DNA of 54,787 nt from a virus (Duplodnaviria > Caudoviricetes): IMG/VR virus record IMGVR_UViG_3300036790_000516, positions 1 to 54,787 of that record; one strand, given 5' to 3'. Within the stretch, counting starts at the first letter, position 1. Each line of letters begins with the position of its first letter. This document shows positions 8,466-46,420 of the stretch, piece after piece. The position numbers and the translations under genes are program-made. Under the pieces are notes generated by a model. It worked only from the letters and a program-made list of their open reading frames with translations. It searched no databases and was not told the origin of the DNA.

Positions 8466-11024
8466 ATGCGGACGCGGATCATCTTTGGGATCGTCGCTGT
8501 CTTGGCGGCACTGCTGCTGCCAGCGTCCGGTTTCTGCCAATTTACCAGCGTGCAGGCCCAGGTGAAAGACGCCAACGGTAAACTCTGGTCCAACTGCACC
8601 GTCAACGCGTCCTTCGTGCCATCGCCGTCGGCGACCACCCAGCCCCTGCTCAATGGGTCGACGTTCCAGACGACGGTCCCGGTCGTGCAATGCGACTCGA
8701 TGGCCAATCTCACCCTGACGCTGGCCGACAACAATCAGGTCCAGGACGGCCACACCGCCCCGCCCGCGTCCCAGTGGAATATCAACGTGGCCTCGGACTC
8801 GGTGTGCTTCGCGGGGCAGAAGTTCTACTTCAACGCGCGATTGACGATCACCGGCGGCTCACAGAACATCACCGCCGCGCTGACCGCCGACGCTCCGATC
8901 CTGCCGACCTGCGGCGGCGGCGGCGGCGGCGACTGTCCCGGCATGACCACCGCGAATCTCGCGCAGCTCTATAATCTCAGCGGCGCGTGCGCGGGCGAGA
9001 TCTGGCTTTACAACGCCCCCGACATCACGAACTTCATCGGCGCGTCCCCGGCCCCGTTCGGCCAGCCGGTAACGACGATGGACCCGGACTTTTACTCCAT
9101 CGACGACAACTGGACCGGGTGCGACGAGTGTTCGACGGGGACGCTGCGGTCAAACGACCTGCTGCTTCAGTACTATGGGACCGACAACGTGACGCTGGGC
9201 TCGTCGGTGGACGTGCAGGCCCTCGGGCAAATCGTAATGGCGGTCGGGTCCGGTTCCTTCGAGCAAGCGGCCTATAACACGAACTCGATCACCTTCACCG
9301 ACATTGCCGACGAGAACGCCGGTGCGCTCCTGGCTGCGAACTCCGTCGATACCATGCTGGGGACGCGGCTGCAAATGTACGCGGGGGATGGCAGCAACAA
9401 CTACGTCGAACTCCGCGGCCCCCCTACGCTCGCGGCGACCGGCGTCTACACCCTGCCCGACGCCCTCCCGGCGATGGATACCAGCTACTTTCTGACCAGC
9501 GACACCATGGGCATCATGTCGTGGGCGGTCGCAGGGGGCGGCGGCGGGGGAACCATCGGAGGCTCGATCGCCTCCGGCCAGCTCGCGTTCGGCGCCGCCA
9601 CCGCGAACGACATCGAAGGCACCGCCAACGCGACGCTGGACGCCTCCGGCGACATTGACCTCGCGGGCACCATCACCGGCGGCACGCTGGCGGGCGCGGG
9701 CACCGCCTGTCTGCACGTCAATAACGCAGGCGTGGTCAGTCCGGCCAGCGGCGACTGCGCGACCGGCGGTTCCGGCTCGGTGACAGAGGTCGATACGACG
9801 ACCCCGCTTGGCGGCGGCCCCATCACGACAACCGGGACGCTAACCTGCCCCACCTGCACGACCAACGCCGCCGCCCTCACCCTTCACGCCATCGTGCTGG
9901 GCGCGGGCGGGCAGGCAACGTCGGCGCTGGGCTCGCTTGGCACGTCTACGACGGTGCTGCACGGCGCGGCGGCCGGAGCCCCGTCCTTTAGCGCCGTCGG
10001 CCTGGCCACCGACGTAACCGGCCAACTCCCCATCGCCGCCGTCGGCAGCGCCGGACTGAGCGGGACCTCGCCGATCTCGATCGCATCGACCGGCGTGATC
10101 TCCTGCTCGACCTGTTCGGCGTCATCGGGAACGGTAACCAGCGTCGCCACGACCTCGCCGATCGCCGGCGGCACGATCACCTCGACCGGGACGCTTTCCT
10201 GCCCGACCTGCATCGTCGCCCCGGCGTCGCCATCGGCGGGCGTCGGCCATTTCGCAGGCTCGACCCAGACGATTACCTCCAGCGCCGTAACGCCGTCCGA
10301 CGCCGCCGGGAACACCTCCGGCTCGGGCAACTTCTGCCTGGTGACCTCCTGCGTGATGACCACGCCGAATCTGGGAACGCCGTCGGTGGTCACGCTTACC
10401 AACGGAACCAGCCTGTCGCTGGCGACCGGGGTCGCCGGCAACCTTGGCGTTACGCACCTGAACTCCGGCACCGGCGCAACCTCGTCGACGTTCTGGCGCG
10501 GCGACGGCTCCTGGGCCTCCCCGTCCGGCAGCGGCACGGTCAACTCCGGCACGCAGTTCGCGCTGGGCGTCTACGCCACCGGCGGGACGGCCATCTCCAG
10601 CGGGCCAACGCCGCCAGCGGCGAACGGGCAGTATTTCGTCGGCTACAACGTCACAGGCAGCGCGGCGGTTACGCCAGCGGCGATCCAGTCCGGTATGACG
10701 CCGACTTCGATCAATAGCGCCGCGACCGCCTACACCATCCTCTACAGCGACAACGAGCGAACCGTGCTGATCGACGTCGCCGCGAGCAACAGCGTCACCA
10801 TCACCCTGCCGACGCCGTCCTCCCTCGGCAACGCGACGTTCACCACGCGCATCGTGAATCACTCGGCGAACGCGGCGACCATCTCGGCGACGACGTTCGA
10901 CATTCAATCGGGCACGCACGGGGCGGGGTCGACGCTGACGCTGCCGTCGGGTCAGAGCTGCCAGTTGTACGTGGACTCGTTCAATTCGTCGACTTGGGAC
11001 GCCGATTGCGTGACGTTGCAATGA
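8466..11024 (+). CDS. Tail-fibre-like protein with N-terminal signal peptide
   Basis: Signal [25 protein letters not shown]. Prealbumin-like N-domain (VKDANGK), poly-Gly hinges, VTSV...CPTC repeats, TFWRGDGSW motif, fibre-type C-domain (AYTILYSD...TITLP). Confidence 0.75.
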
Positions 11025-23812: not shown

Positions 23813-24391
23813 ATGAAGCCGTGCTCTCGATGCAAACGGTCGCTGCCGCTAAAGCAGTTCGTCGCGGCAGGGAACACGAGGTCAGGTCGAGGAGCCTTGT
23901 GTACTCAATGTAATCGCGACAGAAACAACAGGCGGAACAGGGCACTACGGGTTCGCGTTTTAAATCACTACTCTGGCGGACTCGCTCAGTGTTCCTGCTG
24001 CGGCGTGGGGATTCTCGAATTTCTCTCGTTGGATCACATTAACGGTGGGGGGAGACGGCATCGCAGGACGATTAAAATTCGCTGGTGGGAATGGCTTATA
24101 AAGAACGGACTTCCCTTGGGGTTTCGCGTTCTTTGCCACAACTGCAACCAGTCGATTGGTCTATACGGCTATTGTCCCCACCAAACGGGCGAGCATGCGC
24201 TGTTGGATGCTTTTGAGTCGTATGATCCCCACGCGCCAAGCAAAAGTCTGAAGCTAACATCGGAACAGGTTCAAGAGATAAGGAAGGCCATCGCCAATGG
24301 AGTACCCCAAATCGCCCTCGCCACCAAATACCGAGTCAGTAGAGCAACAATCTGTCTCATCAACGGAAGAAGGCGATGGGGAGACGCTTGA
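23813..24391 (+). CDS. HNH homing endonuclease with C-terminal HTH
   Basis: CSCCG, LSLDHINGGG, VLCHNCN, CPH; KLTSEQVQEIR...VSRATI; lower GC than flanks. Confidence 0.85.
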   Translation: MKPCSRCKRSLPLKQFVAAGNTRSGRGALCTQCNRDRNNRRNRALRVRVLNHYSGGLAQCSCCGVGILEFLSLDHINGGGRRHRRTIKIRWWEWLIKNGLPLGFRVLCHNCNQSIGLYGYCPHQTGEHALLDAFESYDPHAPSKSLKLTSEQVQEIRKAIANGVPQIALATKYRVSRATICLINGRRRWGDA

Positions 24392-25667
24392 TCACGGCGT
24401 TCCAGTGGTATTTGAAACTGGAAAGGCGGGCACGGGGAAATCCTTTCGTCTGATGCGGGAGTCGCAAGCCAAAGACTCCATCCTCCAGTTATGCAGCACG
24501 ACAGGCATCAGTGCGGTCAATCTTGGCAGCGTCACCCTCAATAGCGTTCTGAAATATTTCGACACCGCGTCCCTGCGCGACTCTTTCCTCTCGGGCCAGC
24601 TCGACCGCACGCTTCACGACCTGGCCCTGCACCGCCGCTGGCTGGCGATCGACGAGGGCTCGATGCTCGAAGCCGACCAGCTCGACCTGATCCATCGCGG
24701 GGTCGAGAAGGCCAACCAGTTCCGCGATCTCGCCGGGCGGCCCTTGGGCATCCGTCTGGTCGGCGACTTCGCGCAGCTCCCGCCGGTGCAAGGGCGATGG
24801 GCGTTCGAGGCCGACTGCTGGCGGCGGTTCGCGGCGGCTACGACCCGCCTGGCGCGCGTATGGCGGCAGGACGGCGGACCCTTCCTCGACGCCTTAAACG
24901 CCGCTCGCGAGGGTCGCGGGGGCGACGCGGCCGACATACTAAGCGCCGCCGGGGCCGAATGGCGCACCGCCCGCGACGAGAACTTCGACGGCACGACGAT
25001 CCTCCCCAAGAACGCGCTGGTCAGCCGGCACAACGAACTCGTCCTGGCGAAGCATCGCGGCGAGGTCATTACCGTCACCTCCCGCCGCTGGGGCAGGCAA
25101 CGCAGCGAGTGGGGCGAGAACCAGCGGACGCGCGAGTGGGGAATACCGCCCAAGGCCGAGTTCAAGATCGGCGCCTACGTGATGATCCTCGCGAACTCCC
25201 CCGGCTTCGAGTGGGCCAACGGAGATTGCGGCCATGTTGAAAGCTACGACGCATCGCCGCTGACCGAGTCGTTCGCGATTCGCCTGGTGCGCACCGGCGC
25301 GCTGGTCGAGATCGCCAAAATCCGCCGCAGGGTCGAGGTCCGCGCCAAGCCCGACGACTGGCCCGACGCCAACCGGTTCGCGCAATGGGGACGGCCATAC
25401 CGCGACCCCGAGCGGCGATGCTACGTGCTCGGCGAGGTGGAGTTTTTCCCGCTGCGGCTGGCGTGGGCGAGCACCGTTCACAAATCGCAAGGACTGTCCC
25501 TCGACGCGGTGCAGGTCGACTACCGCGACCGGTTCTTCGCGTCGCCCGCGATGCTCTACGTCGCGCTGTCCCGGTGCCGCACGCTTGCCGGGCTGCGGCT
25601 GGTCGGCATGAAGGACGTGTTCGTGCGGGCGTGCAACATGGACGCGCGGGTGAGGGACTACGTATGA
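24297..25667 (+). CDS. Pif1/RecD-like SF1B helicase
   Basis: TGKAGTGKS, IDEGSM, GDFAQLPPV, FPLRLAWASTVHKSQG, YVALSR. Start uncertain (24297 or GTG 24405). Confidence 0.9.
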   Translation: MEYPKSPSPPNTESVEQQSVSSTEEGDGETLDHGVPVVFETGKAGTGKSFRLMRESQAKDSILQLCSTTGISAVNLGSVTLNSVLKYFDTASLRDSFLSGQLDRTLHDLALHRRWLAIDEGSMLEADQLDLIHRGVEKANQFRDLAGRPLGIRLVGDFAQLPPVQGRWAFEADCWRRFAAATTRLARVWRQDGGPFLDALNAAREGRGGDAADILSAAGAEWRTARDENFDGTTILPKNALVSRHNELVLAKHRGEVITVTSRRWGRQRSEWGENQRTREWGIPPKAEFKIGAYVMILANSPGFEWANGDCGHVESYDASPLTESFAIRLVRTGALVEIAKIRRRVEVRAKPDDWPDANRFAQWGRPYRDPERRCYVLGEVEFFPLRLAWASTVHKSQGLSLDAVQVDYRDRFFASPAMLYVALSRCRTLAGLRLVGMKDVFVRACNMDARVRDYV

Positions 25668-26884
25668 GAAAGAAGCCGCAATCGTGTTCCGGTTGCGCGA
25701 TGGAGTTCCACGGCCACGATTTTAGCCAAATCGAGGGCACCGGCTCAAACGGCATCATGGTCATCGGCGAGGCCAGCGGCAAGGAGGAGGCCCGCGAGTG
25801 TCTGCCATTCCGCCCGTACGCGCCCTCCGGCGGGGTCCTCGAACGCGCGTTCCGGCGCATGTCCCTCAAGCGCAACCAGTTTTCCATCACCAACTGCGGA
25901 CGCTGCCGACCGCGCAAAGACTGGTTGTCCGATTCGCCGTGGGAGTATGCCGCGCTCCGCCATTGCCGCCCGAATCTGATCGCCGCGATCGCCGAGTTCC
26001 GCCCCCGCGTCATCTGGACGCTGGGCAACCTCGCCATGCGCGAAGTCACCGGCTATAGCGGCGTCGCACGGGAGATGCAGTCGATCTCGCATCTGACCGG
26101 ATACTGCCTGCCGACCGCGCCGGACCTGTCGCCGGTGCCGATCCCGGTCGTGCCCGCGTTTCACACGGCGTACCTGCGCCGCGGGAAAATGTCGCACTTC
26201 GGGCAGCTCACGCGGACGCTCAAGCGGGCGACCAACATCGCGGCGGGGACCGATCGCGATTGGCTGTGGGGCGTTGTGCCGGAGGACCCGGCGACGCATG
26301 GAGGATTACGATATGAAATCCATCCGTCGCTCGACGCTGCACAAGCGTTTGCTGCGCGAGTTAGAGACGGTATCAAGAGTATCGTCTCTTATGACATTGA
26401 GACTCAGGAATCAGCGTCCCTTGACGAGGATGCGCGCGAGGGATTCACAGACACTCGCATTCAGCTTGTCCAGTTCAGTATCGAAAGTGGAGAGGGCATT
26501 GCGATACCTTTCGATGGAGCCTATCGTGGGATTATCGGAGAAATACTGCGAGGACCCAACGTCAAGGTCGGCCACAACGTCTGGCTGTTCGACAACAAAG
26601 TCCTCCGCGCGGCGGGCGAGCGGGAAGGGCTCGACCTGATCCCGCGCGGCACCATCCACGACACCCTCGCCATGTTCCACCACTGGCAGCCGGACCTTCC
26701 CGCCCATCTCCAGTTCGCCGCCAGCTTCGTGTCGTTCCCGTTCCCCTGGAAGCATCTGGCGGCGACCGATCTGGCGTTCTACGGGTGCTGCGACGCGGAC
26801 GCGACGCTGCGGCTGTATACGTTTCTGGAGGCGGCGCTGCGGCGGGACGGGATTTGGGATGACGGCGAGTCGGCCGTCGCGTGA
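25664..26884 (+). CDS. Uracil-DNA glycosylase (family 4-like) fused to a DnaQ-like 3'-5' exonuclease; N-terminal half of the split family A polymerase
   Basis: UDG motifs CSGC, IGEASG..E...PF, ITN..RCRP, TLGNLA, FHTA. Exo I YDIET, Exo II GHN..FD, HDT, Exo III YGCCDAD. Confidence 0.88.
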   Translation: MRKKPQSCSGCAMEFHGHDFSQIEGTGSNGIMVIGEASGKEEARECLPFRPYAPSGGVLERAFRRMSLKRNQFSITNCGRCRPRKDWLSDSPWEYAALRHCRPNLIAAIAEFRPRVIWTLGNLAMREVTGYSGVAREMQSISHLTGYCLPTAPDLSPVPIPVVPAFHTAYLRRGKMSHFGQLTRTLKRATNIAAGTDRDWLWGVVPEDPATHGGLRYEIHPSLDAAQAFAARVRDGIKSIVSYDIETQESASLDEDAREGFTDTRIQLVQFSIESGEGIAIPFDGAYRGIIGEILRGPNVKVGHNVWLFDNKVLRAAGEREGLDLIPRGTIHDTLAMFHHWQPDLPAHLQFAASFVSFPFPWKHLAATDLAFYGCCDADATLRLYTFLEAALRRDGIWDDGESAVA

Positions 26885-26897
26885 TGAAGGAGGGCAA

Positions 26898-27395
26898 GTG
26901 AGCGACGAACAAGATGGCGGCAAGATGTCCGAAGAGATGGCGGAAGAAGCATTACAACGCGAACGGGCCAAATACCTTGAGGAGTTTGGGAAAGTCGGTC
27001 CACACAAGATGCCTGACCAGGGAGGTAAAACTATGGCAATGACTGCTGCCAGTGACTGCTTTTATTGTGACGCTTTATGGGAAATAGATGCGGAACGAAA
27101 GCTGCATCGGCATCCCGATGGAACTGCTTTCGTATATCCCTGCTCGGACGGAAAGTTGCCAGATTATTCACGTATCGTTAGCCAAGATACAGAAACACTT
27201 CTCTCCATTGCTAGGAAGAACGTAGACGATTGGGCCAAGGTTGCCGGTGAGAGGGAACAACTACTGGCCGCCGAGCGCACGAAAACGAAGCGGCTGCGGG
27301 AACTAATGTTGAATGTACTAGATATGGATGGTGATTGGGAAGATAGAGAGCATGCGATGCGGGCCGTGCTTGCCGAGACGGGAGACCAAGCGTGA
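26898..27395 (+). CDS. Hypothetical protein (low-GC insert between polymerase halves)
   Basis: AAGGAGG SD before GTG; second in-frame GGAGG-ATG internally. Confidence 0.6.
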   Translation: MSDEQDGGKMSEEMAEEALQRERAKYLEEFGKVGPHKMPDQGGKTMAMTAASDCFYCDALWEIDAERKLHRHPDGTAFVYPCSDGKLPDYSRIVSQDTETLLSIARKNVDDWAKVAGEREQLLAAERTKTKRLRELMLNVLDMDGDWEDREHAMRAVLAETGDQA

Positions 27396-27577
27396 TCGAT
27401 AGACTGTACACGACGCGCTTCTATCCATGCGGCTGTAGCGCAAACGGTCCTGGGGACGTGCCGCCATATTGTCCGATTCACCGTTCCCTGATCGACATGG
27501 AGAATCTGCTTTCCGACCCAAATACCAGCAAGTATTTTATTAGCGAGCCTCCAGAGTTGGCCGAGACGGGAGAGTGA
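27392..27577 (+). CDS. Small Cys/His protein
   Basis: GTGA coupling; CGC...CPIH. Confidence 0.6.
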   Translation: MIDRLYTTRFYPCGCSANGPGDVPPYCPIHRSLIDMENLLSDPNTSKYFISEPPELAETGE

Positions 27578-27579
27578 CC

Positions 27580-27750
27580 ATGGCGACCAAGAGGACGAAG
27601 GGGAAGCGGTGCCGAAAATGTCGTCATGCGAAGACATCGCACAGAAGCTATGGCTCAAAGTTGTGCAAGGCTAAGGGCGACATGTGCGGATGCCCCGGAT
27701 GGTCACCACAACGCGTTTCCGGCGCTCGTAACCTGAAAGGGGACGGCTGA
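27580..27750 (+). CDS. 56-aa zinc-finger-like protein (not in ORF track)
   Basis: MATKRTKGKRCRKCRHAKTSH...C......CGC; GGGAG SD. Confidence 0.65.
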   Translation: MATKRTKGKRCRKCRHAKTSHRSYGSKLCKAKGDMCGCPGWSPQRVSGARNLKGDG

Positions 27751-27751
27751 G

Positions 27752-28561
27752 ATGACGAAGCTGACGGACGAAGAGCTGGCAGCACAACGTAGACTGTGCG
27801 GGCATCCGGCGCATGTCGGAAGTGTGTGCGCCCGTATGCTCGACAATATCGACGCCCTCCAGCGCGAGAACGCCGAGTTGCAGGCCAAGCTCGCGCCGGG
27901 TCCCTGCCCGCAGAAGCATCCGGCGATGTTCTGGCATGTCGTCACAGAGGACGTTCATTTCCCTCAAGACCCTCCAGGAACGATCCGCTTCAAGAGTAGC
28001 GGTCCCATCTGCGACCTCTGCCTCGCCCTGTCCCGCGTTGCGGATGACGCGACAGTGGCAGAGCACAGTAACCACGTTCAATTCGCGGCGGATATGTATT
28101 CCATTCTCGTTGACCCTTGCGCGGACGGCTCGATCAAAGAGGCTGAGATGTTCGAAACGCTAAAGCGTGCGGCGACGGAACAGCGAGAGACAATTTACCG
28201 TCACGCGGAGGAGTTGAAACGCGCTGCCGATACCGGGAGAGCGACGGGACTGAGTGATGCCGCAGAGCACATGTGTCTGTTTATTGACGAGGATTGGACC
28301 GTTAAATGTTCCTGCGGCTGGTCGAAAAAGTGTAACGAGCGTGAGTACACAAACCTTTTTGCTGGGCACATCCGTGCCCTCGACCCGTCCGCAGCCAAGG
28401 CCCTCGAGGAGACCCACCCCCGCGAGGACATCATCTCCGAGTCCACCGTCACAAACGGCATGGTCGAGATCGGCGGACGGCGCATCGCCGCGCCGGGCTT
28501 CCCCGAGGGCCAAAAGGTCGAGGTCGTGGCGCGGGAACGGCGGGAGCGGCAGGGGCGATGA
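27752..28561 (+). CDS. Hypothetical mosaic protein
   Basis: MTKLTDEELAA N-terminus, coiled coil, Cys pairs; ATGA-coupled to the polymerase. Confidence 0.6.
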   Translation: MTKLTDEELAAQRRLCGHPAHVGSVCARMLDNIDALQRENAELQAKLAPGPCPQKHPAMFWHVVTEDVHFPQDPPGTIRFKSSGPICDLCLALSRVADDATVAEHSNHVQFAADMYSILVDPCADGSIKEAEMFETLKRAATEQRETIYRHAEELKRAADTGRATGLSDAAEHMCLFIDEDWTVKCSCGWSKKCNEREYTNLFAGHIRALDPSAAKALEETHPREDIISESTVTNGMVEIGGRRIAAPGFPEGQKVEVVARERRERQGR

Positions 28562-30195
28562 CCACGCGCGGCTATCTCGGCCAGGTATTCGAGGTGCGCC
28601 CGGTGCTCGCCGCGATGGAGGACCGCGGGATGCCAATTGACGACGCCGCGCGCATCGCCCTGGACGCCGAGTTCACCATCGCGCAACGGGCGCTGGGCGA
28701 GGAGCTGGCCGCCGCCGCGCCGGCCGCCTGCCGCCGCGTCCACCCGAAGGACGGCTACAAGGGGATGCCGCCGGAGGTCAAGGAGTGGCAAAAGCAGGTT
28801 GGTCTGCTCATCACGCCCAACGAACATCGCTTCCAAGAGAAGGGCGACGGCGAGCAATACATCTACGAGGTCCGTACTTTCAACGTCGCCATCATCGATC
28901 CCGAGACGGGAGAACCGACCACAGTAGCCACAACGCGTTGGGCACGCGTCTACGATTTCAACCCGAACAGCAGTCAGCAGCTCCTCGCCTACATGGACGC
29001 GCGGGGGCATAAGCGCCCCAAGTCGCGCAAGAACGAGGACGACGACGGCAACGCCAGGGACACCACGGCCAAGAAGGACCTGCAGCGCCTGGCCTACGAC
29101 CACGACGATCCCTTTTATCTCCGCGTCATCGAGTACCGGGAACTCTCCAAAGCGCGGGGCACCTACATCGACGGGTTCAAGCCGGGCGCCGATGGCTGCG
29201 TCCACACGGCGTTCGGCTTCGCGGGCACCGGGCAGCTCACCTCGCGCAATCCCAACGTGCAGAACTTCCCCAAGCACGGGAGGCTGGCCAAGGCCCTGCG
29301 GCGAATGATCGCGCCGCCGCCGTCCGAGGACCGCGTCGTCATCGAACTCGACTACCGCGCTTTCCACGTGCTGATGACCGGCTTTGCGGCGGAATCGGCG
29401 AACTGGATGCGTCTGGCGCGCCTCGACATGCATTCCTTCGTCGCCTGGCATTTTATGAAGCTGCCCAGCGCCGACGGCCTGTTCGTCCTCGCCGACGATG
29501 ATCTATCCGAACGCCTCGAATGGTTCAAGTCCGACCCCAAACGCGCGTGGGTGCGGGACAAGCAGGCCAAGCCGTCGGACCTCGGCATCGGCTTCGGCAT
29601 GGGGCCTCGCCGCCTGTTCCAGGAGAACATGGAGTATTTCGACGGCGAGCGCGAGGCCCGGAAGTTCCACGACATGCTGCACGGGATATTCCCCGACGTG
29701 ATTTGCGTCTGCCGGGTCGGCGAGCGATGCGACGCGTGGCAGCACCGGGTTCGCTTCGAGGCGCACGAGAAACAGCGGCTGACGACGCCATTCGGCCACC
29801 ACCGCCGGTTCTACGAGGTGTTTCGCTGGGACGCCAAGCGCATGGGATGGGCCAAGGGGGATCAGGCGGAGGAGGCGGTCGCGTTCGTGCCGGCCAATCT
29901 CGCCCACGGCCATCTGCGCGAGGTGATGAAGGACATGAGGCGCGCGGGGCACGACGACCGCTACCGGATGGGCGACCAGATCCACGACGCGCTGGTGTTC
30001 TTCCCGCGGCGCGAGGAGGCCGATGCCTGCCTGGCGGATGTCAGCGCCGCGATGACCGCGCCCAGCCGGGTGATCAGCCATCCAACGCTCGCGCCGGGAG
30101 GCCTGTGGTGCGGGGTGGATGCCAAGATCGGGCCGAACTGGGCTGGGATGGAGAAGGTTAAGATTCGGGCGACGACGACAAAAGGAGTCCGCTAA
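28558..30195 (+). CDS. Family A DNA polymerase, thumb/palm/fingers only (C-terminal half of split enzyme)
   Basis: MEDRGMPID, FNPNSSQQ, YRELSK..GTY, TGQLTSRNPNVQN, motif A DYRAFH, motif B R...AKPSDLGIGFG, TPFGHHR, motif C QIHDAL, G.NW. Confidence 0.92.
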   Translation: MTTRGYLGQVFEVRPVLAAMEDRGMPIDDAARIALDAEFTIAQRALGEELAAAAPAACRRVHPKDGYKGMPPEVKEWQKQVGLLITPNEHRFQEKGDGEQYIYEVRTFNVAIIDPETGEPTTVATTRWARVYDFNPNSSQQLLAYMDARGHKRPKSRKNEDDDGNARDTTAKKDLQRLAYDHDDPFYLRVIEYRELSKARGTYIDGFKPGADGCVHTAFGFAGTGQLTSRNPNVQNFPKHGRLAKALRRMIAPPPSEDRVVIELDYRAFHVLMTGFAAESANWMRLARLDMHSFVAWHFMKLPSADGLFVLADDDLSERLEWFKSDPKRAWVRDKQAKPSDLGIGFGMGPRRLFQENMEYFDGEREARKFHDMLHGIFPDVICVCRVGERCDAWQHRVRFEAHEKQRLTTPFGHHRRFYEVFRWDAKRMGWAKGDQAEEAVAFVPANLAHGHLREVMKDMRRAGHDDRYRMGDQIHDALVFFPRREEADACLADVSAAMTAPSRVISHPTLAPGGLWCGVDAKIGPNWAGMEKVKIRATTTKGVR

Positions 30196-30482
30196 TGCCG
30201 CTGCGACTGCTTGCGCACGAGATCAAGGACGTACGAGACGCTGTTCTGGACTCGATTCGGGGCCGCTACGACACTTACACCTGTCCCGACTGCGACGCCA
30301 ACGTGGAAGTGGATAGCGCCTCGGCCGTGACCATCTTGGACCATTCGATCCCGCCGCTGGTCGACCGCATCCTGGCTATCGTTCACAACGCGGTGCATCG
30401 GGGGATGGCCGAGGCGCAGGCGTCGCCCCCGCCCGCAACCGCTCGATCAGCGCCAGACGATACGCCGCCGCCGCGTCCCTAG
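30195..30482 (+). CDS. Hypothetical protein
   Basis: AAGGAG SD, TAATG coupling, CPDC. Confidence 0.55.
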   Translation: MPLRLLAHEIKDVRDAVLDSIRGRYDTYTCPDCDANVEVDSASAVTILDHSIPPLVDRILAIVHNAVHRGMAEAQASPPPATARSAPDDTPPPRP

Positions 30483-31095
30483 CGTCGTCCTTGTGCGTGC
30501 GGGCGAGGTAGTGATACATCACCGGCGCGGCGGCGATGGCGACCGTTGTCAAGGGCCATCGCGCCGTCCCGATCGCGCCAACGTCCCCGACGAATCGCTC
30601 GCTGCGCACCAGCCCGGTTGCCCGCAGCCGATCCGCCCAGCGGTGGTCCTCGCCGTAGCCGCCTTCCATGGGGACCGCCAGCGCCAGCCCCCGGCGGATC
30701 GGGTTCAGATGGGAGATGTCGCGCCAGTAGAGACGGCCGTCGTCGTGCCATCCCTTCGCGGCGAGGGAGTGGATGGTCGTGCCGAAGGGGGTCCCGTCGA
30801 TGTGGCATTGGAGGCGGAATCCGATCTGGTCGACGACGCCGTCGAGGAGCGGGAGGATGCGGGCGACATAGTCCGGGGGAAGAACATCATCGTCATCGAC
30901 GAAACACAGGTAGTCCGCCCTGGACGCCTGCCGCATCTCCTCGCGATTCCCGCCGAGCGGCAACCTGTCGTCGAAGCGATGGATACGAACGTTCACGCGA
31001 GGCTCGACCTGTGGCTCCAGGATGGCGAGCAGTTGGGCAAGGAACGGCCAGCGGGATGGTTGCGTAAGGATCAGGATGTCCCAGGTGGCGTTCAT
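30376..31095 (-). CDS. Glycosyltransferase family 2-like
   Basis: DILILT, LG.NR, YLCFVDDDD, GED..W. Confidence 0.8.
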   Translation of the reverse strand: MNATWDILILTQPSRWPFLAQLLAILEPQVEPRVNVRIHRFDDRLPLGGNREEMRQASRADYLCFVDDDDVLPPDYVARILPLLDGVVDQIGFRLQCHIDGTPFGTTIHSLAAKGWHDDGRLYWRDISHLNPIRRGLALAVPMEGGYGEDHRWADRLRATGLVRSERFVGDVGAIGTARWPLTTVAIAAAPVMYHYLARTHKDDARDAAAAYRLALIERLRAGATPAPRPSPDAPRCER

Positions 31096-31178
31096 GGCTG
31101 CTCGCACCGGGACACGAGGATGATCAGCGCCACCACCGACAGCACAGCCATCACCGCGTCGAACCAATGTCCGCTCAT
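31092..31178 (-). CDS. 28-aa membrane peptide
   Basis: ATGA-coupled at both ends; MSGHWFDAVMAVLSVVALIILVSRC. Confidence 0.5.
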   Translation of the reverse strand: MSGHWFDAVMAVLSVVALIILVSRCEQP

Positions 31179-31780
31179 GGCCGCTCGCCCCCATCGACCA
31201 GCACGACGTTCTCCGCGCTTGTGTACGATATGGTATACCCAAGGCCCTCCGCCAGCGCCGTCACGCGGTCCAGGCGGTCGTCGTACTCCAGCACGATCAC
31301 CAGCGGCTTGACCCGGTCCCAAGGCCAGCGCTCGAAAATCTCGACCGACGTGCCCTCGGTGTCGATCGAGACGGCCAGAAGCTTGCCGCCGTCGAGGATC
31401 GCCGGGAACTCGTCCACCAGCTCGACGACGGTCGCCTGCGGGACGTAGAAAGGTTCGCTGAACTCCACCTGCCCGCGCCAGTTCATGTAGTTGCGCGCCT
31501 CGGAGGTCGACAGCAGGCCAGCCTCCCAGAACGGCGCGAGACGATGGGAGACGCCGACCGCCGCGTGGACCAGGCGGAGGCGTTGGTTGCGGCCGTGGCG
31601 CGCCAGGAGATTGTCGAAGGCGCGCGAGGGCTCGACCAGCACGCCGGGCCAGCCCTTTTCGACCAGCGCCAGGGTGTTCGAGGCGAAATGGCCGTCGTTG
31701 GCGCCGATGTCGAGGAACGAGCCGCTGCGCCCGCTAACGGCGTCCAGGATCCACTTTTCCTCCTGCGACTGGGAGTACAT
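31175..31780 (-). CDS. FkbM-family methyltransferase
   Basis: YSQ..EE, FLDIGANDG..SNT, GW.GVLVEP, SIDTEG. Confidence 0.88.
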   Translation of the reverse strand: MYSQSQEEKWILDAVSGRSGSFLDIGANDGHFASNTLALVEKGWPGVLVEPSRAFDNLLARHGRNQRLRLVHAAVGVSHRLAPFWEAGLLSTSEARNYMNWRGQVEFSEPFYVPQATVVELVDEFPAILDGGKLLAVSIDTEGTSVEIFERWPWDRVKPLVIVLEYDDRLDRVTALAEGLGYTISYTSAENVVLVDGGERP

Positions 31781-31956
31781 CAACGGTCCTTGGATTCCAG
31801 TCCGTCTTCAACGGCACGCAGAGACTTCCATGCGAGATCGGCTAGGCGCAAGGCCCTCCCAACAGGCCAGTTCTTGCGTGACACATAGTTGCGCTGTAGG
31901 GAGATTTGGGCCAGCCAGGTCGCAACGAAAATGCGCTTGAAGGAATCTTCAGTCAT
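31780..31956 (-). CDS. 58-aa hypothetical protein (not in ORF track)
   Basis: MTEDSFKRIFVATWLAQ...; coupled at both ends. Confidence 0.6.
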   Translation of the reverse strand: MTEDSFKRIFVATWLAQISLQRNYVSRKNWPVGRALRLADLAWKSLRAVEDGLESKDR

Positions 31957-32642
31957 TTCGAGCCCTCGATAACGCCGCGCAACTTCTCCACGTCCCCAGC
32001 CCGCTCCGCCGCCAGCGACCTATAAAGCGCCGTAGGGTCCTGCGCCGCGTGGCGGGCCAACCGCTCCCGCGTGTTCCCGTCCATGGCCGCCTTCCCGTAG
32101 ATATAATGACAATGTTCGATCAGCAGGTCCGGGAGATAGACGCGGCGCCCCAACGCTTTCGCAACGTCCTCGTTCCAGGTGTCGCCGCCGTAGTCGGATT
32201 CGAAGTAAGGCGCGGCCATGTAGCCCAGCGTCTGGACCCAGCGGCGGCTTAGGAACGGATGTGGGATCGCGGTGCCATGGACGACGCCGTCGTCACCGCC
32301 GACGAGGACGATCCTGTCGGGGACGCGGGCGAACGCCTCCTCGACCATTGCGTTCCAGCCGGGCGTTCGAAAGACAATGTCGTCGTTCGCCAGCATGAGA
32401 ATCCCGCCCAGCGCCTGGGGGACCAGCTCGTTCCAGTAGCGGGTCATCACCCGGTCGCGCGCGCCGACGACGACCTTCGCGCCGGTTTGGCCCGCCGACC
32501 TCGCGCTTACCGGATCGTCATCGTCGAACCGGGCGAGGATTTCGATGGCGGACTCGTCGCCGTCCAGCGCCGCATAGGCGGAGTCGGCCATCCGCGCGAA
32601 CTCCATCGGGCGTTTACGGGAGGGTAGCAAGATGCTGATCAT
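31953..32642 (-). CDS. Glycosyltransferase family 2-like
   Basis: ISILLPSR.RP, DDDD, ANDD..F.T.GW, GDTW, IEH.H. Confidence 0.8.
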   Translation of the reverse strand: MISILLPSRKRPMEFARMADSAYAALDGDESAIEILARFDDDDPVSARSAGQTGAKVVVGARDRVMTRYWNELVPQALGGILMLANDDIVFRTPGWNAMVEEAFARVPDRIVLVGGDDGVVHGTAIPHPFLSRRWVQTLGYMAAPYFESDYGGDTWNEDVAKALGRRVYLPDLLIEHCHYIYGKAAMDGNTRERLARHAAQDPTALYRSLAAERAGDVEKLRGVIEGSK

Positions 32643-32645
32643 CGC

Positions 32646-32675
32646 TCACGCCGCCCAGTAGACGCCCGACGCCGC
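32646..32675 (-). pseudogene. Orphaned duplicate 3' end of the upstream glycosyltransferase (AASGVYWAA*)
   Basis: Matches the C-terminus GASGPYWEA* encoded at 33340-33369, on the other side of the RNA ligase. Confidence 0.7.
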
Positions 32676-32681
32676 ACTTCC

Positions 32682-33338
32682 TTATCGCCTTCCCGCAACA
32701 AAGTCCCTCGTCTTGAGTTTTATGATGACGCGTTCACCACGCCCGTCGAATAAGGTTCCAATGGGCCGCGCCACCACGCCCTCCGCCAGTCCCATCCCAA
32801 TGTTTGAAGCAAACGGTAACCGCACCAACGCGACGATTTCAGATAACGACATGCGCCCCAGATAGGGCACAGTGTCTATTCCCAGCTTTGCGGCGACTTC
32901 GTTCACGGCATCGCGCTCCAGCCACCATTTTCCATCCACGAGAGCGTCGAACAAGATGAAGCTTTTGTCGGGACGATAGGCACCTCCTTTCCGGATACCA
33001 GCACCATACCCCTCGCCGTACAGGACAATCTGCGTAGGCTCTACCCACAATTCTCGCATCTTATTGGATGGGAACATGGCGATAAGCGTCTGAATGAACT
33101 CAGCGGGAAGCATCGCCCTTTGTGACCGGCCCCCAAACGAAACGTCGCCATTCGCAGAGAGCATCACTCGTACGTTGGTCCCATCGATCTTCTCGGTCAC
33201 ATCCCATTCAGCAATCGTCGCCAGAACGGGAGATTTGATCTTCGTTGGGTCTACAACGAATGTGGCATCATCTCGTTTAAACAACGTGTCGATCTTGGGG
33301 TATTCAGGTCCCTCGATAACAGTCTGTACCATAGCCAT
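32682..33338 (-). CDS. Rnl2-like ATP-dependent RNA ligase
   Basis: YPKI, TEKIDGTN (motif I), LYGEGYG, FILFD, EGVVARP, KLK; lower GC. Confidence 0.85.
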   Translation of the reverse strand: MAMVQTVIEGPEYPKIDTLFKRDDATFVVDPTKIKSPVLATIAEWDVTEKIDGTNVRVMLSANGDVSFGGRSQRAMLPAEFIQTLIAMFPSNKMRELWVEPTQIVLYGEGYGAGIRKGGAYRPDKSFILFDALVDGKWWLERDAVNEVAAKLGIDTVPYLGRMSLSEIVALVRLPFASNIGMGLAEGVVARPIGTLFDGRGERVIIKLKTRDFVAGRR

Positions 33339-33339
33339 T

Positions 33340-33999
33340 TCACGCCTCCCAGTACGGCCCGCTTGCCCCATACCTGAATCCAAGATGATTCATGCGCACG
33401 CCCGGCATCACGCCGACCCTGAATCCGGCCGCCTCGATCTCCCGGCAGATGGTCTCGTCGGTGTGCCGGGGCTCGCAGGCGGCGAATGTCTTGAGGATGC
33501 CGCGGCGGACGAAGGCGACGCCGCCGACGCTATGGCGGTCGATGATCTCAGATGGCCAGGCGGCAGCGGTTGACCTGTCGGATGACCAAGTGTCCCACTC
33601 AGCGATAAGATTGGCGTTCTCGATCACGCTCACCGCCGTCAGCAGGCCGTACGCGGGATTGGCCCGCAGGATGCGCACGCCGTCGGCGACGAACGTCCTG
33701 CCGAGGATCAAACAGTCGTCGTCGGCGACGATGTAAACGTCCCCCGCCGCGTGCTCCTCGGCGAAACGCTTGGCTTCCATGTGAAACTGGCTCCCGTTCG
33801 AGTCCGTCGAGTGAGCCCGCTGCAAATAGACCTTGGCGTCCTTTTGCATCCACCAACGCCCATGAACCAAGACGGCCATACTATGCCGTAAATCGCGACG
33901 TTCTCCCGACGGAATCCAAGACCGCACGAACACGTCGATCCTCTCCGCCTCCGCCACCTCCGCCGCCCCGCCCGCCTCACCCGGCATCGCCAGATCCAT
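33340..33999 (-). CDS. Glycosyltransferase family 2-like
   Basis: YIVADDDCL, GGVAFVRR, D...C......GF.V, NHLG. Confidence 0.7.
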   Translation of the reverse strand: MDLAMPGEAGGAAEVAEAERIDVFVRSWIPSGERRDLRHSMAVLVHGRWWMQKDAKVYLQRAHSTDSNGSQFHMEAKRFAEEHAAGDVYIVADDDCLILGRTFVADGVRILRANPAYGLLTAVSVIENANLIAEWDTWSSDRSTAAAWPSEIIDRHSVGGVAFVRRGILKTFAACEPRHTDETICREIEAAGFRVGVMPGVRMNHLGFRYGASGPYWEA

Positions 34000-42023: not shown

Positions 42024-44843
42024 ATGAATTACGCGGCCGTGGAGCGATTCCTCTCAAAACTCCCAATCAGGGATCGCGACAGTTCCAAGGTAGTACCCTT
42101 CCGCTTTTTCCATAACCAGCGGAAGCTGCACCGCGCCGCCGCCGAAATGGCCGACGCGGGCAAGCCCGTCCGCCTGATCGTCTGCAAGGCGCGCCGGGTG
42201 ACTTGTTCCTCCTGGGCCGAAGGCCTCCTGTTCTGCCACTGCCTGGCCTATCCCTCGTCCCACGACCTGATCGTCGCCGACGCCTTCAAAACGTCCAAAG
42301 TGCTGATGCGCGTGCCCAAGGATTTCACTCCGGCGATCCCCTTTCTCAACATCGAGGCCATCGAGCGCGAGGTGCGCTTCCCGCACCCCTCCGGCGAGTC
42401 GCTGATGCAGATCGTCACCGCCGGCAAGGACACCAGCGGCCGCGGCTTTACCGTCTCCGCCCTGCACGCCTCCGAGTGCGCGCATTACGGCTCGCCGGAA
42501 GTCTTCCCGTCGCTGCTGCCCGCGCTGCAGACCCACCGCGACACCATCGGCATCATCGAGACGACGCCGAACGGCCGCGAGGGCGAGGGCGAAGTCTTCT
42601 ACGACATGTACTGGGACGCGGCGGGAGGCAAGTCCGAGTGGAAAGCGATCTTCCTGACCTGGGTTGACGACCCCGCCTGCGTCGCCGACGAGGCCTTCGC
42701 CGCCGACGCGCCCGCCGACGACGAGGAACGCGACCTGCTCAAGCGCGGCCTGACCCTCGGCCAACTCGCCTGGCGCCGCCTCAAGATCGCCTCGCCCGAG
42801 TGCGGCGGCTCGGTCTCCACCTTCCACCAGGAATACGCGACGACGGCGGAGGAGTCCTTCATCGCCTCCGGCTATCCCGCCTTCGAGATGGAGGAAATCA
42901 ACTGGGCGCGCAAGAACGTCCGCGAACCGAAATGGCGCGGCTTCATCGAACGCTCGACCGACGGCGAACTCATCCTGCGCAAGCACGCCGAGGGGACGCT
43001 CAAGTTCTACGAGGACCCCGTCCCCGGCCATTACTACTACCTCGGCTGCGACGCCGCGCGCGGGGACGAGGGGCGCGACTTCTCCGCCATCGTCGGCTTC
43101 GACGGCACGACCGGACATCAGGTCTTCACCTATGCCGACTACTGCCAGCCGGAGATCCTGGGCTGCCACGCCAACTCCCTGGGCCGCCACTACAACCGCG
43201 CGATGATCAACGGCGACCTCACCGGCGGCTACGGCTCCGGCGCGCTCTACACGTTGCGCGAGCTGATGCGCTACCCGAACATCTACCGCTGGAAGGGCAA
43301 GGACGACAAGCTCACCGGCGCGCAGCTGTCGAAGTCGCTGTGGATCGACATCACCTCGTGGATTCGCTCGCAGATGTTCGAGTACATGCGGCTGGCGCTG
43401 CGCGAGGGCGCGGGCAGTTCCGGAGACTACGGGATCGTCCTCTACGACGCCGACCTGGTGTCCCAGATCGAACTCTGCACGCGCAAGGACGTTCGTATCG
43501 ACGTGCGCAAGGGGCACGACGATATTTTATTTGCTTGCTGTTTGGAGGGAACGCTGGTCACAACGAATGAGGGAGTCCGGGCGATAGAGTGCGTCGAAAA
43601 GGCCGAGACGGTCATGTGCCACGATGGCTCAACGGACTTTGTCGTCAGAACCGCCACAAACTTCTATCGCGGCGATCTCATCTCTATCCAGGCGTTAGGC
43701 AGCCACCGCAGATTGCAGCTCACTCGGAATCATCGCGTCTACTACTCCCGCTACGAATGGCGAAAGCGCGGAACGAAAACGCGCAAGAAGATTCGCGTTA
43801 ACGTCGGATGGAAGCCTGCCGGTGAGCTTGCCGTCGGCGATTCGCTTCTCGTGCCGAAACGCAAGGGACTTCACCCCGCGCCATTCACCGACGACCAACT
43901 CTATGTAATGGGCTGGTATCTGGCAGAAGGCTGTATCTGTCGCGGTAACAACATTAGCTTCGCTCTGCACCGTAACGAGAGCGACGTAGCAGAGCAGCTC
44001 GCGCGAATCATGGTTCAGCTTGACCCGCCAACGCCCAAATTTGCCCGAGGTCGGCTCTACGAACGCAACGCGCCACGCTTCAGACAAAGCAAGGGCAACG
44101 GGTTCGTCCTGAGCTACACGTCCGATTATTGGAGCGCGTTGCTGGGCGGAAACTGCGGACGGCTATCGGAGTCAAAGTTCCTCTCGCAAAACCTGTTCGG
44201 CTCAATGGGACTGCTCCCGCTGCTACGCGCCTGGATCGATGGCGATGGCTGCCGCTCGTCCTCGAACCAACGTGAGCATCTATTTTGCAGTACGAAGTCG
44301 GAGCAACTCGTTTGGCAGATTCGTCAAATTCTTATCGACGAGGGTATTTGGTGTACGGTTGCGCGACCGTCGAGCCAAGACATCAACGTCATCCACATGA
44401 CGCCGGAATACTTTACCAAGTTCGCTGCTCCCGGCAAGATGCGAAAGCAACGCGGCGTTGTTCGGCGATTCGAGAAGCGCCACGTCGTCGAAACCGATGA
44501 GGGCTTCTGGACACCAATTAAGATTATCCGGCACGTGCCTCATCGGGGGAATGTATACGACCTCCAGGTGCGCGGTCCCGAGACTTTCGTCGCAGAAGGC
44601 TATGCCGTCCACAACTCGATGCTCGCGAACCTGGCCCGTCTCCATTGGGCGCCGCCGCGGTCCCCGAATCGCATCCGCAGCCGCGACGACGAGATCGAGG
44701 CCGAGGCGCTGAACAAGATGAAGCTGCGCGGGGATCGGGTGGTGGACGACGCGCGCGGGATGCTGGCCCGGCATCACGCCAGGGTGCAGCGGTCGATCGA
44801 CCGGGGCGTGCGGGACGAGGACAACGTCATGGAGGACGCGTGA
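42024..44843 (+). CDS. terL: Terminase large subunit with intein
   Basis: Q motif, KARRVTCS Walker A variant, GRG, LHASE Walker B, ETTPNG, F.QEY, LGCDAARG, HDD. Confidence 0.9.
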   Translation: MNYAAVERFLSKLPIRDRDSSKVVPFRFFHNQRKLHRAAAEMADAGKPVRLIVCKARRVTCSSWAEGLLFCHCLAYPSSHDLIVADAFKTSKVLMRVPKDFTPAIPFLNIEAIEREVRFPHPSGESLMQIVTAGKDTSGRGFTVSALHASECAHYGSPEVFPSLLPALQTHRDTIGIIETTPNGREGEGEVFYDMYWDAAGGKSEWKAIFLTWVDDPACVADEAFAADAPADDEERDLLKRGLTLGQLAWRRLKIASPECGGSVSTFHQEYATTAEESFIASGYPAFEMEEINWARKNVREPKWRGFIERSTDGELILRKHAEGTLKFYEDPVPGHYYYLGCDAARGDEGRDFSAIVGFDGTTGHQVFTYADYCQPEILGCHANSLGRHYNRAMINGDLTGGYGSGALYTLRELMRYPNIYRWKGKDDKLTGAQLSKSLWIDITSWIRSQMFEYMRLALREGAGSSGDYGIVLYDADLVSQIELCTRKDVRIDVRKGHDDILFACCLEGTLVTTNEGVRAIECVEKAETVMCHDGSTDFVVRTATNFYRGDLISIQALGSHRRLQLTRNHRVYYSRYEWRKRGTKTRKKIRVNVGWKPAGELAVGDSLLVPKRKGLHPAPFTDDQLYVMGWYLAEGCICRGNNISFALHRNESDVAEQLARIMVQLDPPTPKFARGRLYERNAPRFRQSKGNGFVLSYTSDYWSALLGGNCGRLSESKFLSQNLFGSMGLLPLLRAWIDGDGCRSSSNQREHLFCSTKSEQLVWQIRQILIDEGIWCTVARPSSQDINVIHMTPEYFTKFAAPGKMRKQRGVVRRFEKRHVVETDEGFWTPIKIIRHVPHRGNVYDLQVRGPETFVAEGYAVHNSMLANLARLHWAPPRSPNRIRSRDDEIEAEALNKMKLRGDRVVDDARGMLARHHARVQRSIDRGVRDEDNVMEDA
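43536..44615 (+). mobile_element. 360-aa intein with LAGLIDADG endonuclease in the terminase nuclease domain
   Basis: N-terminal CCLEGT, block B TRNHRVY, GWYLAEG and AWIDGDG motifs, VYDLQV...AVHN/S; lower GC. Confidence 0.93.
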
Positions 44844-45552: not shown

Positions 45553-45872
45553 GCGACGCCATCGACGTTCCCGCCGAGAATCCGCGCCTGCTGTGGGGAA
45601 AGGTCTGGTCGGAGTTCAGTGCGGCGAGGGAAAAGGATCGCACAGGGGCATACCTCTCTTTGCTTCGTGATCTCGCAAGCCATGGTGACATTTTCGTGCC
45701 TGCTCTGATTCAGCCAAAGGACTACGCGGATCTAATTATCCACGTCGAGACGTTCGTCAAAGCCGACACCGGCGCGAAGCAAGGTTCGGCCATCGAGAAG
45801 GTGCAGGAGTTCCTTACCACCGGCGAACTCGAAGCGGTGATCGTGACGGCGGCCGACGGGACGATCAACTGA
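45549..45872 (+). CDS. Hypothetical protein, start codon unclear
   Basis: Protein-like frame (PRLLWGKVWSEF...) coupled by TGATG to the next gene; no ATG/GTG near its 5' end. Confidence 0.45.
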   Translation: MGDAIDVPAENPRLLWGKVWSEFSAAREKDRTGAYLSLLRDLASHGDIFVPALIQPKDYADLIIHVETFVKADTGAKQGSAIEKVQEFLTTGELEAVIVTAADGTIN

Positions 45873-46420
45873 TGCTGCACCATCTCTCCAACGAGAACTT
45901 TTGGGCGTATCTTGCGGGCTTTGTGGATGGCGAGGGGTGTATCTCTCACGGCACAGGGAAAAGCGGGCTTAGCCTTCGCATCTCCCAAAGCCGGGAACGC
46001 GGTCGAAGTTTGCTCACTCAAATTGCAACCGCGTTGGTGGGGAAGGCCGGATTGCGACCGGACTTTAGGATTCTTTGCTTGTCAAATTCCGAGAAATCTC
46101 GATCCCGTCGGCACAGTCATAAACAAGATCACTATCTCTTGGTGATTGGCGGTCCCCCCGCCCTTGTCGTGCTAGAGGGCCTGCTACCTTATTTGCAAAT
46201 CAAAAAGGTGGCGGCGTTGGATGCGATACGCTTCGCAAAATTATACCCCTGTCGGTCGGCGGGCCGTGGATACCGAAAGACCCTATGTAGATACGGTCAT
46301 CCAATGGAAGGCGATAACCTAAAGGTATATCTCGTCAGGCGCCAAGGAGTCGTTGTTCGGAAGGATCATTACTGCATCGCCTGCCAACGCCGACGTGGGC
46401 AAAAACGGAAGGCTGTGTAA
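45872..46420 (+). CDS. Free-standing LAGLIDADG homing endonuclease with C-terminal Zn-binding motif
   Basis: AYLAGFVDGEGCI, LLPYLQIKK, KTLCRYGH...CIAC; lower GC. Confidence 0.85.
   Translation: MLHHLSNENFWAYLAGFVDGEGCISHGTGKSGLSLRISQSRERGRSLLTQIATALVGKAGLRPDFRILCLSNSEKSRSRRHSHKQDHYLLVIGGPPALVVLEGLLPYLQIKKVAALDAIRFAKLYPCRSAGRGYRKTLCRYGHPMEGDNLKVYLVRRQGVVVRKDHYCIACQRRRGQKRKAV

Follow-up and report, generated by a model that had tools for sequence, protein, structure and literature searches.

Why is the polymerase gene of a tailed phage present as two pieces with four small genes between them, and do the products of the two pieces still make one enzyme? The question is raised by IMG/VR record IMGVR_UViG_3300036790_000516, a complete, metagenome-assembled genome that comprises 54,787 bp, carries direct terminal repeats, was analyzed over its entire length (hereafter, the window) and belongs to a tailed phage, with PHROG matches to the large terminase, portal and major head protein, among others. 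On the plus strand of the window, an open reading frame (ORF) of 406 aa at 25664..26884, which encodes uracil-DNA glycosylase (UDG) and exonuclease domains, is separated from an ORF of 545 aa at 28558..30195, which encodes a family A DNA polymerase domain, by a gap of 1,673 bp occupied by four ORFs (i1–i4). It is probable that this phage makes its replicative family A polymerase from two cistrons, that the split came first and the junction then became a site for cargo genes, and that the two halves re-associate.

Because fused relatives carry both parts in a single frame, the two ORFs are the halves of one UDG-exonuclease-polymerase enzyme of family A, which is how they were interpreted in the original prediction. 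Both halves share one open frame in all 25 assessed IMG/VR loci (L003 is too distant to be assessed and is left out of this count), with fused frames of 916–1353 aa where the contig contains the whole gene (three contigs are cut); the same arrangement is found in 13 of 14 further IMG/VR contigs and in 52 of the 65 metagenome loci where the match to the UDG-exonuclease part reaches its C-terminal end. The halves from the window align end to end with the fused relatives, with nothing missing and nothing duplicated. In this alignment, the first ORF, with the C-terminus ...GIWDDGESAVA-stop, ends about 6 aa past the conserved Trp that closes the exonuclease domain, and the second ORF, with the N-terminus MTTRGYLGQV, opens about 4 aa ahead of the conserved Gly-Tyr that starts the polymerase domain; both ends agree with the earlier reading of the sequence. 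The cut falls into the short linker that leads from the last exonuclease helix, with the conserved Trp at its end, to the first polymerase element, with the conserved Gly-Tyr. The comparison of fused and split homologs proposed at that stage, once the loci were dereplicated and a full match to the UDG-exonuclease half was required, yields 67 fused and 8 split loci in addition to the window, i.e., 67 of 75 distinct loci are fused. The accompanying statement that SPO1-type polymerases are single chains thus holds for the majority state, but fission of PolA between the exonuclease and polymerase parts has been published for T7-like cyanophages (PMC10201439).

The UDG-exonuclease half, which is homologous to the N-terminal ~400 aa of the fused relatives, consists of a family-4 UDG-like domain (approximately residues 1–180) followed by a 3'-5' exonuclease domain (approximately residues 205–400). 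The UDG domain matches PF03167 with 59.8 bits (cut-off 24.3, E-value 4e-16), and a profile search against PDB identifies family-4 UDGs (4zbx, 9e-20; 1ui0, 1e-15) as well as 'SPO1 DNA polymerase-related' UDGs (1e-12). Family-4 UDGs are characterized by motif A, GE[AG]PG, motif B, HPS, and four cysteines that ligate an Fe-S cluster; the window contains GEASG and FHTAY vs GEGPG and FHPSY in TM0511, and in the alignment of 18 relatives, C81 and C101 are invariant and C8 and C11 nearly so. The exonuclease motifs of the DEDDy type are Exo I, DxE, Exo II, Nx3FD, and Exo III, Yx3D. Residues D244, E246, N305, F309, D310, Y373 and D377 are invariant across 18 sequences; we take D244/E246, N305/D310 and Y373/D377 to be the residues of Exo I, II and III, respectively, and this half accordingly contains all the residues that define a DEDDy 3'-5' exonuclease. 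At E ≤ 0.01, Pfam yielded no exonuclease profile, so the assignment of this domain rests on the motifs and on homology to fused PolAs.

The polymerase half matches PF00476 (DNA_pol_A) with 86 bits (cut-off 34.3, E-value 3.3e-24) and phrog_17 (2e-37), and its PDB matches include Klenow and Taq chains, with E-values from 1e-11 to 1e-9. The pairs E263/D265, R333/K338 and H476/D477, all invariant in 16 sequences, are the residues of motifs A, B and C, including the catalytic carboxylates of motifs A and C and the lysine of motif B. Motif C of Klenow and of the T7 enzyme reads H-D-E; the residue after D477 (codons 476–477 of this ORF are positions 29983-29988) is Ala in the window (H-D-A) and Ser in the family consensus (H-D-S), and the second carboxylate of motif C is missing throughout the group.

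Direct reading of the sequence shows that the two halves belong to a plus strand gene run (24297-30195) in which stop and start codons overlap from gene to gene. Its first gene (24297..25667, plus strand), directly upstream of the UDG-exonuclease ORF, encodes a superfamily 1 helicase of the Dda/PIF1 type (Pfam AAA_30/PIF1/UvrD_C_2; phrog_325 at 3.7e-46), and its stop overlaps the UDG-exonuclease start as ATGA; in most of the related loci, tblastn finds the helicase upstream of the polymerase gene as well. At its other end, the UDG-exonuclease stop overlaps a GTG (as GTGA), an overlap that relatives use as well, but in the window it opens just a 6-codon mini-ORF (26881..26901, plus strand), which comparison with L067, L106, L124 and L133 marks as a junction relic; the stop of the mini-ORF, in turn, overlaps the GTG at which i1 starts. 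A strong Shine-Dalgarno-like sequence, GAAGGAGG (26886..26893, plus strand), lies a few nucleotides before this GTG at 26898. The four cargo ORFs follow on the same strand: i1 (26898..27395; 165 aa from GTG 26898 or 178 aa from ATG 26859), an ORFan; i2 (27392..27577; 61 aa, Cys-rich), the start of which overlaps the i1 stop as GTGA; i3 (27574..27750; 58 aa, basic, with a CxxC...CxC pattern), likewise overlapping the i2 stop as GTGA; and i4 (27752..28561; 269 aa), another ORFan, which begins after a 1-nt spacer and the stop of which overlaps the ATG of the polymerase ORF as ATGA. That the second half is ATGA-coupled to the preceding ORF and that the four small genes are of lower GC had both been noted, and the measurements bear this out: GC is 0.52–0.61 in the insert ORFs vs 0.64–0.66 in the two halves, and GC at third codon positions (GC3) is 0.50–0.71 (i1, 0.50; i4, 0.71) vs 0.78 and 0.87 in the halves.

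Given that the genome is metagenome-assembled and that the insert deviates in GC, an assembly chimera or a sequencing error could be suspected, in which case the insert or the stop codon would not be real. However, a 13,462-bp contig from a different assembler, possibly derived from the source sample, spans positions 26400-29000, including both junctions, with 0 differences, which disposes of the misassembly that had been flagged for checking. Furthermore, a 352-nt contig in a run from a different study bridges positions 28405-28756 across the i4/polymerase junction, and other pieces of the insert are also present in that run; a 275-nt contig from a second study matches positions 27028-27302 (within i1) with 0 differences; no joints or indels were reported; and the tail of the exonuclease ORF and the start of the polymerase ORF are common to diverged relatives. 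An artifact of this kind is therefore extremely improbable.

Another possibility is that the 1.67-kb insert is a self-splicing intron of group I or II, or some other element that restores a single frame at the RNA level. ORF-containing introns occur in the polymerase genes of phages with 5-hydroxymethyluracil DNA, those of the SPO1 type included; the insert sits exactly at the domain boundary, and in principle the frame could be kept by choosing a 5' exon that ends in U (GAU) and an insert that ends in G (AUG). Nevertheless, the insert is taken up almost to the last base by its four ORFs, so that no room is left for a ribozyme core, the same stop/start arrangement is kept in a relative with a 0-nt insert (L067), and the 190–676-nt inserts of other relatives are single ORFs of unrelated sequence. 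A search of Rfam detected no match at E ≤ 10 on either strand of 26500-28900, although long, ORF-bearing introns can escape such a search, and the repeats flanking the insert are short matches of chance size, without a target-site duplication. Splicing is thus very unlikely. No more credible is the formation of a fused protein by programmed frameshifting, stop-codon bypass or protein trans-splicing. At junctions of the L067 type, the two frames overlap by 4 nt, and a -1 shift could fuse the products in principle, but no slippery heptamer is seen at the overlap (as judged by eye) and, in the window, 1,673 nt with many stops and in other frames lie between the halves. The tails of ~6 aa and ~4 aa at the cut are too short to contain split-intein halves, and no Hint or intein Pfam domain matches either half or i1–i4, in agreement with the earlier remark that split-intein motifs are lacking at the ends.

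The same split, with other cargo, is found in relatives. A near-length protein search with the UDG-exonuclease half identified 103 non-self proteins, 61 of which stop no more than 22 aa after the conserved Trp, mostly with the pattern WDD-x(1-14)-[VA][AT]A; several of these stand-alone proteins are encoded on contigs of 42–64 kb, and one is 87% identical to the query, with the C-terminus WDDGEAAA. A scan of Joint Genome Institute metagenome contigs, some of which are the same as the IMG/VR ones, yielded 80 loci: 52 fused, 8 split, 4 in which a stop is followed by the end of the contig within 43–78 nt, 15 with the junction off the contig, and 1 in which the frame runs past the contig end. All 8 split loci and the 4 loci with a stop close to the contig end have the exonuclease tail WDD...[VA][AT]A-stop, and the same junction (...WDD-x-VAA-stop followed by polymerase M-T-T-R-G-Y) is present in 11 distinct metagenome contigs. 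In the split loci, the last UDG-exonuclease codons form a purine-rich, GGAGG-like Shine-Dalgarno sequence, followed by an ATGA or GTGA overlap with the next gene; the polymerase ORF, where it is on the contig, starts with M/V-x-[TIH]-R-G-Y, most often M-[ST]-T-R-G-Y, and the tblastn matches in the 8 split relatives begin at residue 1 to 6 of the polymerase query.

What lies between the halves differs from locus to locus. In L067, there is no insert (0 nt), and the polymerase gene starts at the GTGA overlap itself. L124 and L133 contain one small ORF without assigned function (inserts of 238 and 190 nt, respectively), just the start of which is seen in L062; the 241-nt insert of L106 likewise holds an ORF without assigned function, the 313-nt insert of L112 a cupin (Cupin_2 at 4e-8), the 606-nt insert of L061 an ORF with a DPPY motif and no Pfam match, and the 676-nt insert of L072/L073 an HNH_3 endonuclease (2e-12); the insert of the window, 1,673 nt, holds the four ORFans. 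The genes between the halves of the relatives are again chained by overlapping stop and start codons. Because the same junction occurs without an insert (L067) and with unrelated inserts, the four-gene insert does not appear to have created the split, contrary to what was implied at the outset; the split seems to be older and the insert to be exchangeable cargo. The suggestion that the split is domesticated fares better: the same cut is maintained in diverged phages, with the catalytic residues kept.

Two further lineages are cut at or near the same place. In L058 (6983-10205), which is 34% identical, the split is at the same boundary, with a 55-aa hydrophobic, membrane-like ORF between the halves and with unrelated junction sequences. 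In L144 (6001-9252), from a clade of ~49-kb phages, the cut lies about 20 aa earlier, right after Exo III, and the gene order is UDG-exonuclease (368 aa), a Mom-family protein (175 aa, 1.2e-27) and the polymerase half (524 aa); 19 of the 103 protein matches are stand-alone UDG-exonucleases with this type of cut. The L058 and L144 lineages are independently split, which brings the total to at least three cuts at or near one boundary. Several fused relatives have large in-frame insertions in the polymerase gene, namely L002 (~7527-8038), L023 (7217-8001) and L026 (9182-10269), along with L052, L053, L057 and L060, in which the insertions are seen as gaps between tblastn pieces. The insertion in L002 can be identified as an intein because it begins with Cys and ends with His-Asn before Ser, at the motif GQxT|SRNPN; the insertions in the other fused relatives are located in the UDG, exonuclease or polymerase parts. 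The polymerase gene is a hotspot for mobile elements.

The distribution of the split state is patchy. On a tree of the UDG-exonuclease half (76 sequences, a quick tree), at least 7 changes of this state are forced by well-supported branches, and constraining the eight type-A split alleles to group together costs 279.9 log-likelihood units (approximately unbiased test, p = 1.8e-142; the group was defined by the trait, but the tree was already known when the test was made). Thus, the split alleles are not one clade on this tree. The polymerase tree requires four changes for its four split rows. The locus L104 has the polymerase half closest to that of the window (64% identity, rank 1 of 79) but ranks 58 for the UDG-exonuclease half (57%), and such different closest relatives of the two halves imply frequent recombination around the junction. 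In L014 (~9186-9440), a fused allele keeps the WDD signature, which is followed by a 40-residue linker before R-G-Y and looks like the re-fusion of a formerly split gene.

Given the patchy occurrence of the split among fused relatives, the junction either would have spread laterally, by recombination or homing, or would represent an old split that was lost many times by re-fusion; the HNH gene at the L072/L073 junction counts as support for lateral spread. One can further propose, tentatively and as a possibility that we consider less likely than not, that the exonuclease/polymerase linker of UDG-PolAs is a portable 'landing pad', in which a cassette of Shine-Dalgarno sequence and stop/start coupling is reused for accessory genes and moves between lineages by recombination or homing. 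Such a cassette would account both for the same junction in unrelated UDG-exonuclease backgrounds and for the different relatives of the two halves. If it exists, an essential polymerase gene becomes a two-cistron operon with a protected, co-expressed slot, the contents of which include an HNH endonuclease, a Mom-family DNA modification gene, a methyltransferase-like ORF with a DPPY motif, a cupin and ORFans.

Do the two polypeptides, then, form one enzyme? In the proposed scheme, the split would come first, and the intercistronic junction would later serve as the landing site for cargo, here the four lower-GC ORFans. All six genes, from the UDG-exonuclease to the polymerase, would be present on one transcript, along which ribosomes would terminate and re-initiate gene by gene. 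Subunit 1 would bring the family-4 UDG-like domain and the proofreading exonuclease, subunit 2 the polymerase domain, and the two would re-associate via the native exonuclease/polymerase and UDG/polymerase interfaces, giving a heterodimer that would be the equivalent, as a replicase, of the fused enzyme. Since the genes are all coupled and no terminator-like site is detectable on the plus strand inside the insert, the simplest arrangement would be one transcript, along with termination and re-initiation; the counts from the promoter/terminator scan are at the level of shuffled sequence.

Co-folding of the halves, each with its own alignment, gave a median ipSAE of 0.85 vs 0.00 for the best of 3 controls; the mark used is attained by 116 of 157 solved complexes and by 2 of 215 mismatched pairs, counts that apply here only roughly because the halves were folded with alignments of our own making. 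The runs agree in at least 77% of the contacts, and the partner pLDDT is 87 or higher. The tightest predicted contacts are those of polymerase Tyr6 with residues 392-398 and 336-341 of the exonuclease half, i.e., residues that flank the cut, and UDG residues 174-180 are predicted to contact polymerase residues 409-420. The halves thus pass the co-folding check that accompanied the original prediction of a two-subunit polymerase. With the split recurring in diverged phages, the catalytic residues kept and the co-fold passing its controls, a two-subunit enzyme is the best reading of these data, whereas the notion that proofreading and uracil sensing are detachable is speculation.

An unlikely, although less remote, alternative to the two-subunit enzyme is that the split is real and the products are separate, the polymerase half being an exonuclease-less PolA and the UDG-exonuclease half acting in trans as a repair or editing factor or being on its way to loss. 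PolAs without an exonuclease domain do exist (PMC10201439), and the dosage of the two halves could be uncoupled by the cargo that lies between them. On the other hand, the invariant residues are kept in both halves across many split lineages, the residues flanking the cut, Trp398 and Tyr6, are conserved and predicted to pack together, and the same report states that PolAs need the exonuclease domain structurally, for stability (PMC10201439).

The cargo ORFs themselves show hardly any similarity to other proteins. There is no Pfam or PHROG match for i1, i2 or i4, and i3 only weakly matches phrog_1311 (1.9e-4, function unknown); no nuclease family was detected in i1–i4 with Pfam or PHROGs. An exhaustive HMMER search with i1 retrieves i1 itself and 3 marginal matches (E ≥ 4e-5), and a search of 5.8 billion proteins with i4 retrieves i4 itself and one partial match with 30% identity; the best Atlas score is 0.88 for i1 and not above 0.81 for i4, with no family in either case. 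Two IMG/VR scans found no relatives of i1 and i4, and none of i1–i4 has a tblastn match at E ≤ 1e-5 in 120 related loci.

Several points weigh against the two-subunit reading and the history proposed for it. Since i1–i4 lack homologs, their status as real genes relies on packing, start/stop coupling and gene calls. The co-fold may reflect memory of single-chain PolA, because single-chain structures contain the same exonuclease/polymerase interface, so that the prediction would indicate likeness rather than binding. That the genes are co-transcribed, that their translation is coupled and that the halves assemble is what we infer from the sequence and the model, and the order of events, with the split before the cargo, would likewise follow from a comparison that is unrooted; L067 is equally compatible with a mobile gene that created the stop/start and was later deleted, leaving a scar. 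As for homing, the excess of nucleotide identity in the 39 codons before the cut relative to the rest of the gene is 0.076 for split-split, 0.061 for fused-split and 0.033 for fused-fused pairs, a signal of co-converted flanks that is small and too weak to show homing. Finally, the DNA context of the split appears in 11 distinct contigs, the 61 stand-alone UDG-exonucleases being seen as proteins.

How does this locus compare with the known split genes of phages? The closest precedent is the S-SBP1-like split PolA of T7-like cyanophages, for which fission of an exonuclease/polymerase gene was reported 'for the first time' (Czernecki et al. 2023, Nucleic Acids Research, PMC10201439). In that work, the split (PolA cluster #5) is attributed to a 1-nt frameshift that left overlapping exonuclease and polymerase ORFs in one recent event; the prediction is that solvent can reach the new termini, the co-fold can be superposed on the fused relatives, and the products are interpreted as two interacting components (PMC10201439). 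The window is similar in that the exonuclease and polymerase are encoded by two genes in adjacent order derived from a fused ancestor. However, the S-SBP1 PolA has no UDG domain, whereas the UDG-PolA of the window, a soil-phage variety, keeps the UDG together with the exonuclease half; S-SBP1 has no genes between the halves, whereas the family of the window has a Shine-Dalgarno sequence and an [A/G]TGA coupling site with 0 to 1,673 nt of cargo; and in place of one recent event, the split alleles of UDG-PolA do not form one clade, with L058 and L144 as further lineages. The N-terminal UDG, the four intervening ORFs and the lack of any T7-like phage among the phage-database matches listed for the polymerase half indicate that the window, although it resembles the S-SBP1 type in its working, is not a member of that type.

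Other splits are more distant. In Aeromonas phages 25 and 44RR, the family B polymerase gp43 is split into 43A and 43B, and in Aeh1, nrdA is split by mobE; an untranslated spacer or a homing-endonuclease gene lies between the halves, which co-purify and are active, and there, too, the endonuclease may either have caused the split or have entered one that was already present (PMC2988022). Here, too, an essential phage replication enzyme is encoded in two cistrons with sequence between them, but those enzymes are a family B polymerase and a ribonucleotide reductase, cut elsewhere in the fold, and the mobE/nrdA type has a nuclease gene between the halves, whereas none was found in the window with Pfam or PHROGs and, among the relatives, only L072/L073 has one (HNH_3). 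In the 'fractured genes' (Dassa et al. 2009, PMC2677866), the halves keep their order at a single locus and are separated by a free-standing mobile gene; the invader is proposed to bring both the stop that ends the upstream half and the start codon for the downstream half, the coding sequences overlapping. The layout of the window is alike but without intein halves, fractured genes being defined by split-intein halves that religate the protein. The MEP401-type phages of OM43, a marine group, likewise have a split DNA polymerase, for which the authors left an intron possible (PMC10580990). In the literature searched (few subscription journals and no supplements), there was no split UDG-PolA and none with cargo genes inside. 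Thus, PolA exonuclease/polymerase fission as such is already published, and the split UDG-PolA with cargo is new by the literature searched.

The remainder of the genome contains further putative mobile genes. Two free-standing HNH endonuclease genes, both on the plus strand, look like such elements: one is just upstream of the helicase (23813-24391; phrog_2255 at 4e-13; GC3 0.58) and the other between the terminase and portal genes (45872-46420; phrog_5046 at 9e-10; GC3 0.56), with a GC3 of ~0.8 in the genes neighboring both. The large terminase ORF (42024-44843, plus strand; 939 aa) probably holds an intein with a homing endonuclease, with weak matches to Intein_splicing (34.3 bits vs a cut-off of 35.8), Hint_2 and LAGLIDADG_3 at residues ~505–864. 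Directly 3' of the polymerase gene, on the minus strand (30376-33383), there are two glycosyltransferase-like genes (phrog_14775 at 1e-32 and phrog_14945 at 1e-27) and an RNA-ligase-like gene (phrog_548 at 2e-22) that may act in DNA or cell-surface modification.

INPHARED yields just distant matches (22–29% identity), so no cultured relative can be named. In GTDB, three contigs were matched, from a Terracidiphilus metagenome-assembled genome (MAG), a Solirubrobacterales MAG and a 2.5-Mb Acidobacteriota contig, which is a hint, and nothing firmer, that the hosts are soil Acidobacteriota or Actinomycetota. The 2.5-Mb contig, from an uncultured Acidobacteriota MAG, carries an exonuclease-only fragment (L143, 4962-5651; 57% identity to residues 187–383) that may be a prophage remnant and, as such, a hint at the host. 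In the Terracidiphilus MAG contig (L141, 969-4166), a helicase match (query residues 36–385) and UDG-PolA share one open frame, which may be a helicase-polymerase fusion or an artifact of stop-to-stop reading.

For PolA biology, these findings extend the fission between exonuclease and polymerase, reported once before, in T7-like cyanophages, to a second, unrelated subfamily, UDG-PolA, and show that fission of this kind recurs, there being at least three independent cuts, all at or close to one boundary. Alleles that are fused, split and empty, split with cargo, and apparently re-fused form a series that makes it possible to ask how an essential enzyme tolerates cutting, and that bears on whether homing endonucleases create or colonize such cuts, a question also posed by the T4-like gp43. 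It further bears on whether phages use a place inside an indispensable operon as a safe site to express accessory or anti-defense genes. The engineering of split polymerases could also be guided by PolAs that are split in nature and have a separable proofreading/UDG module.

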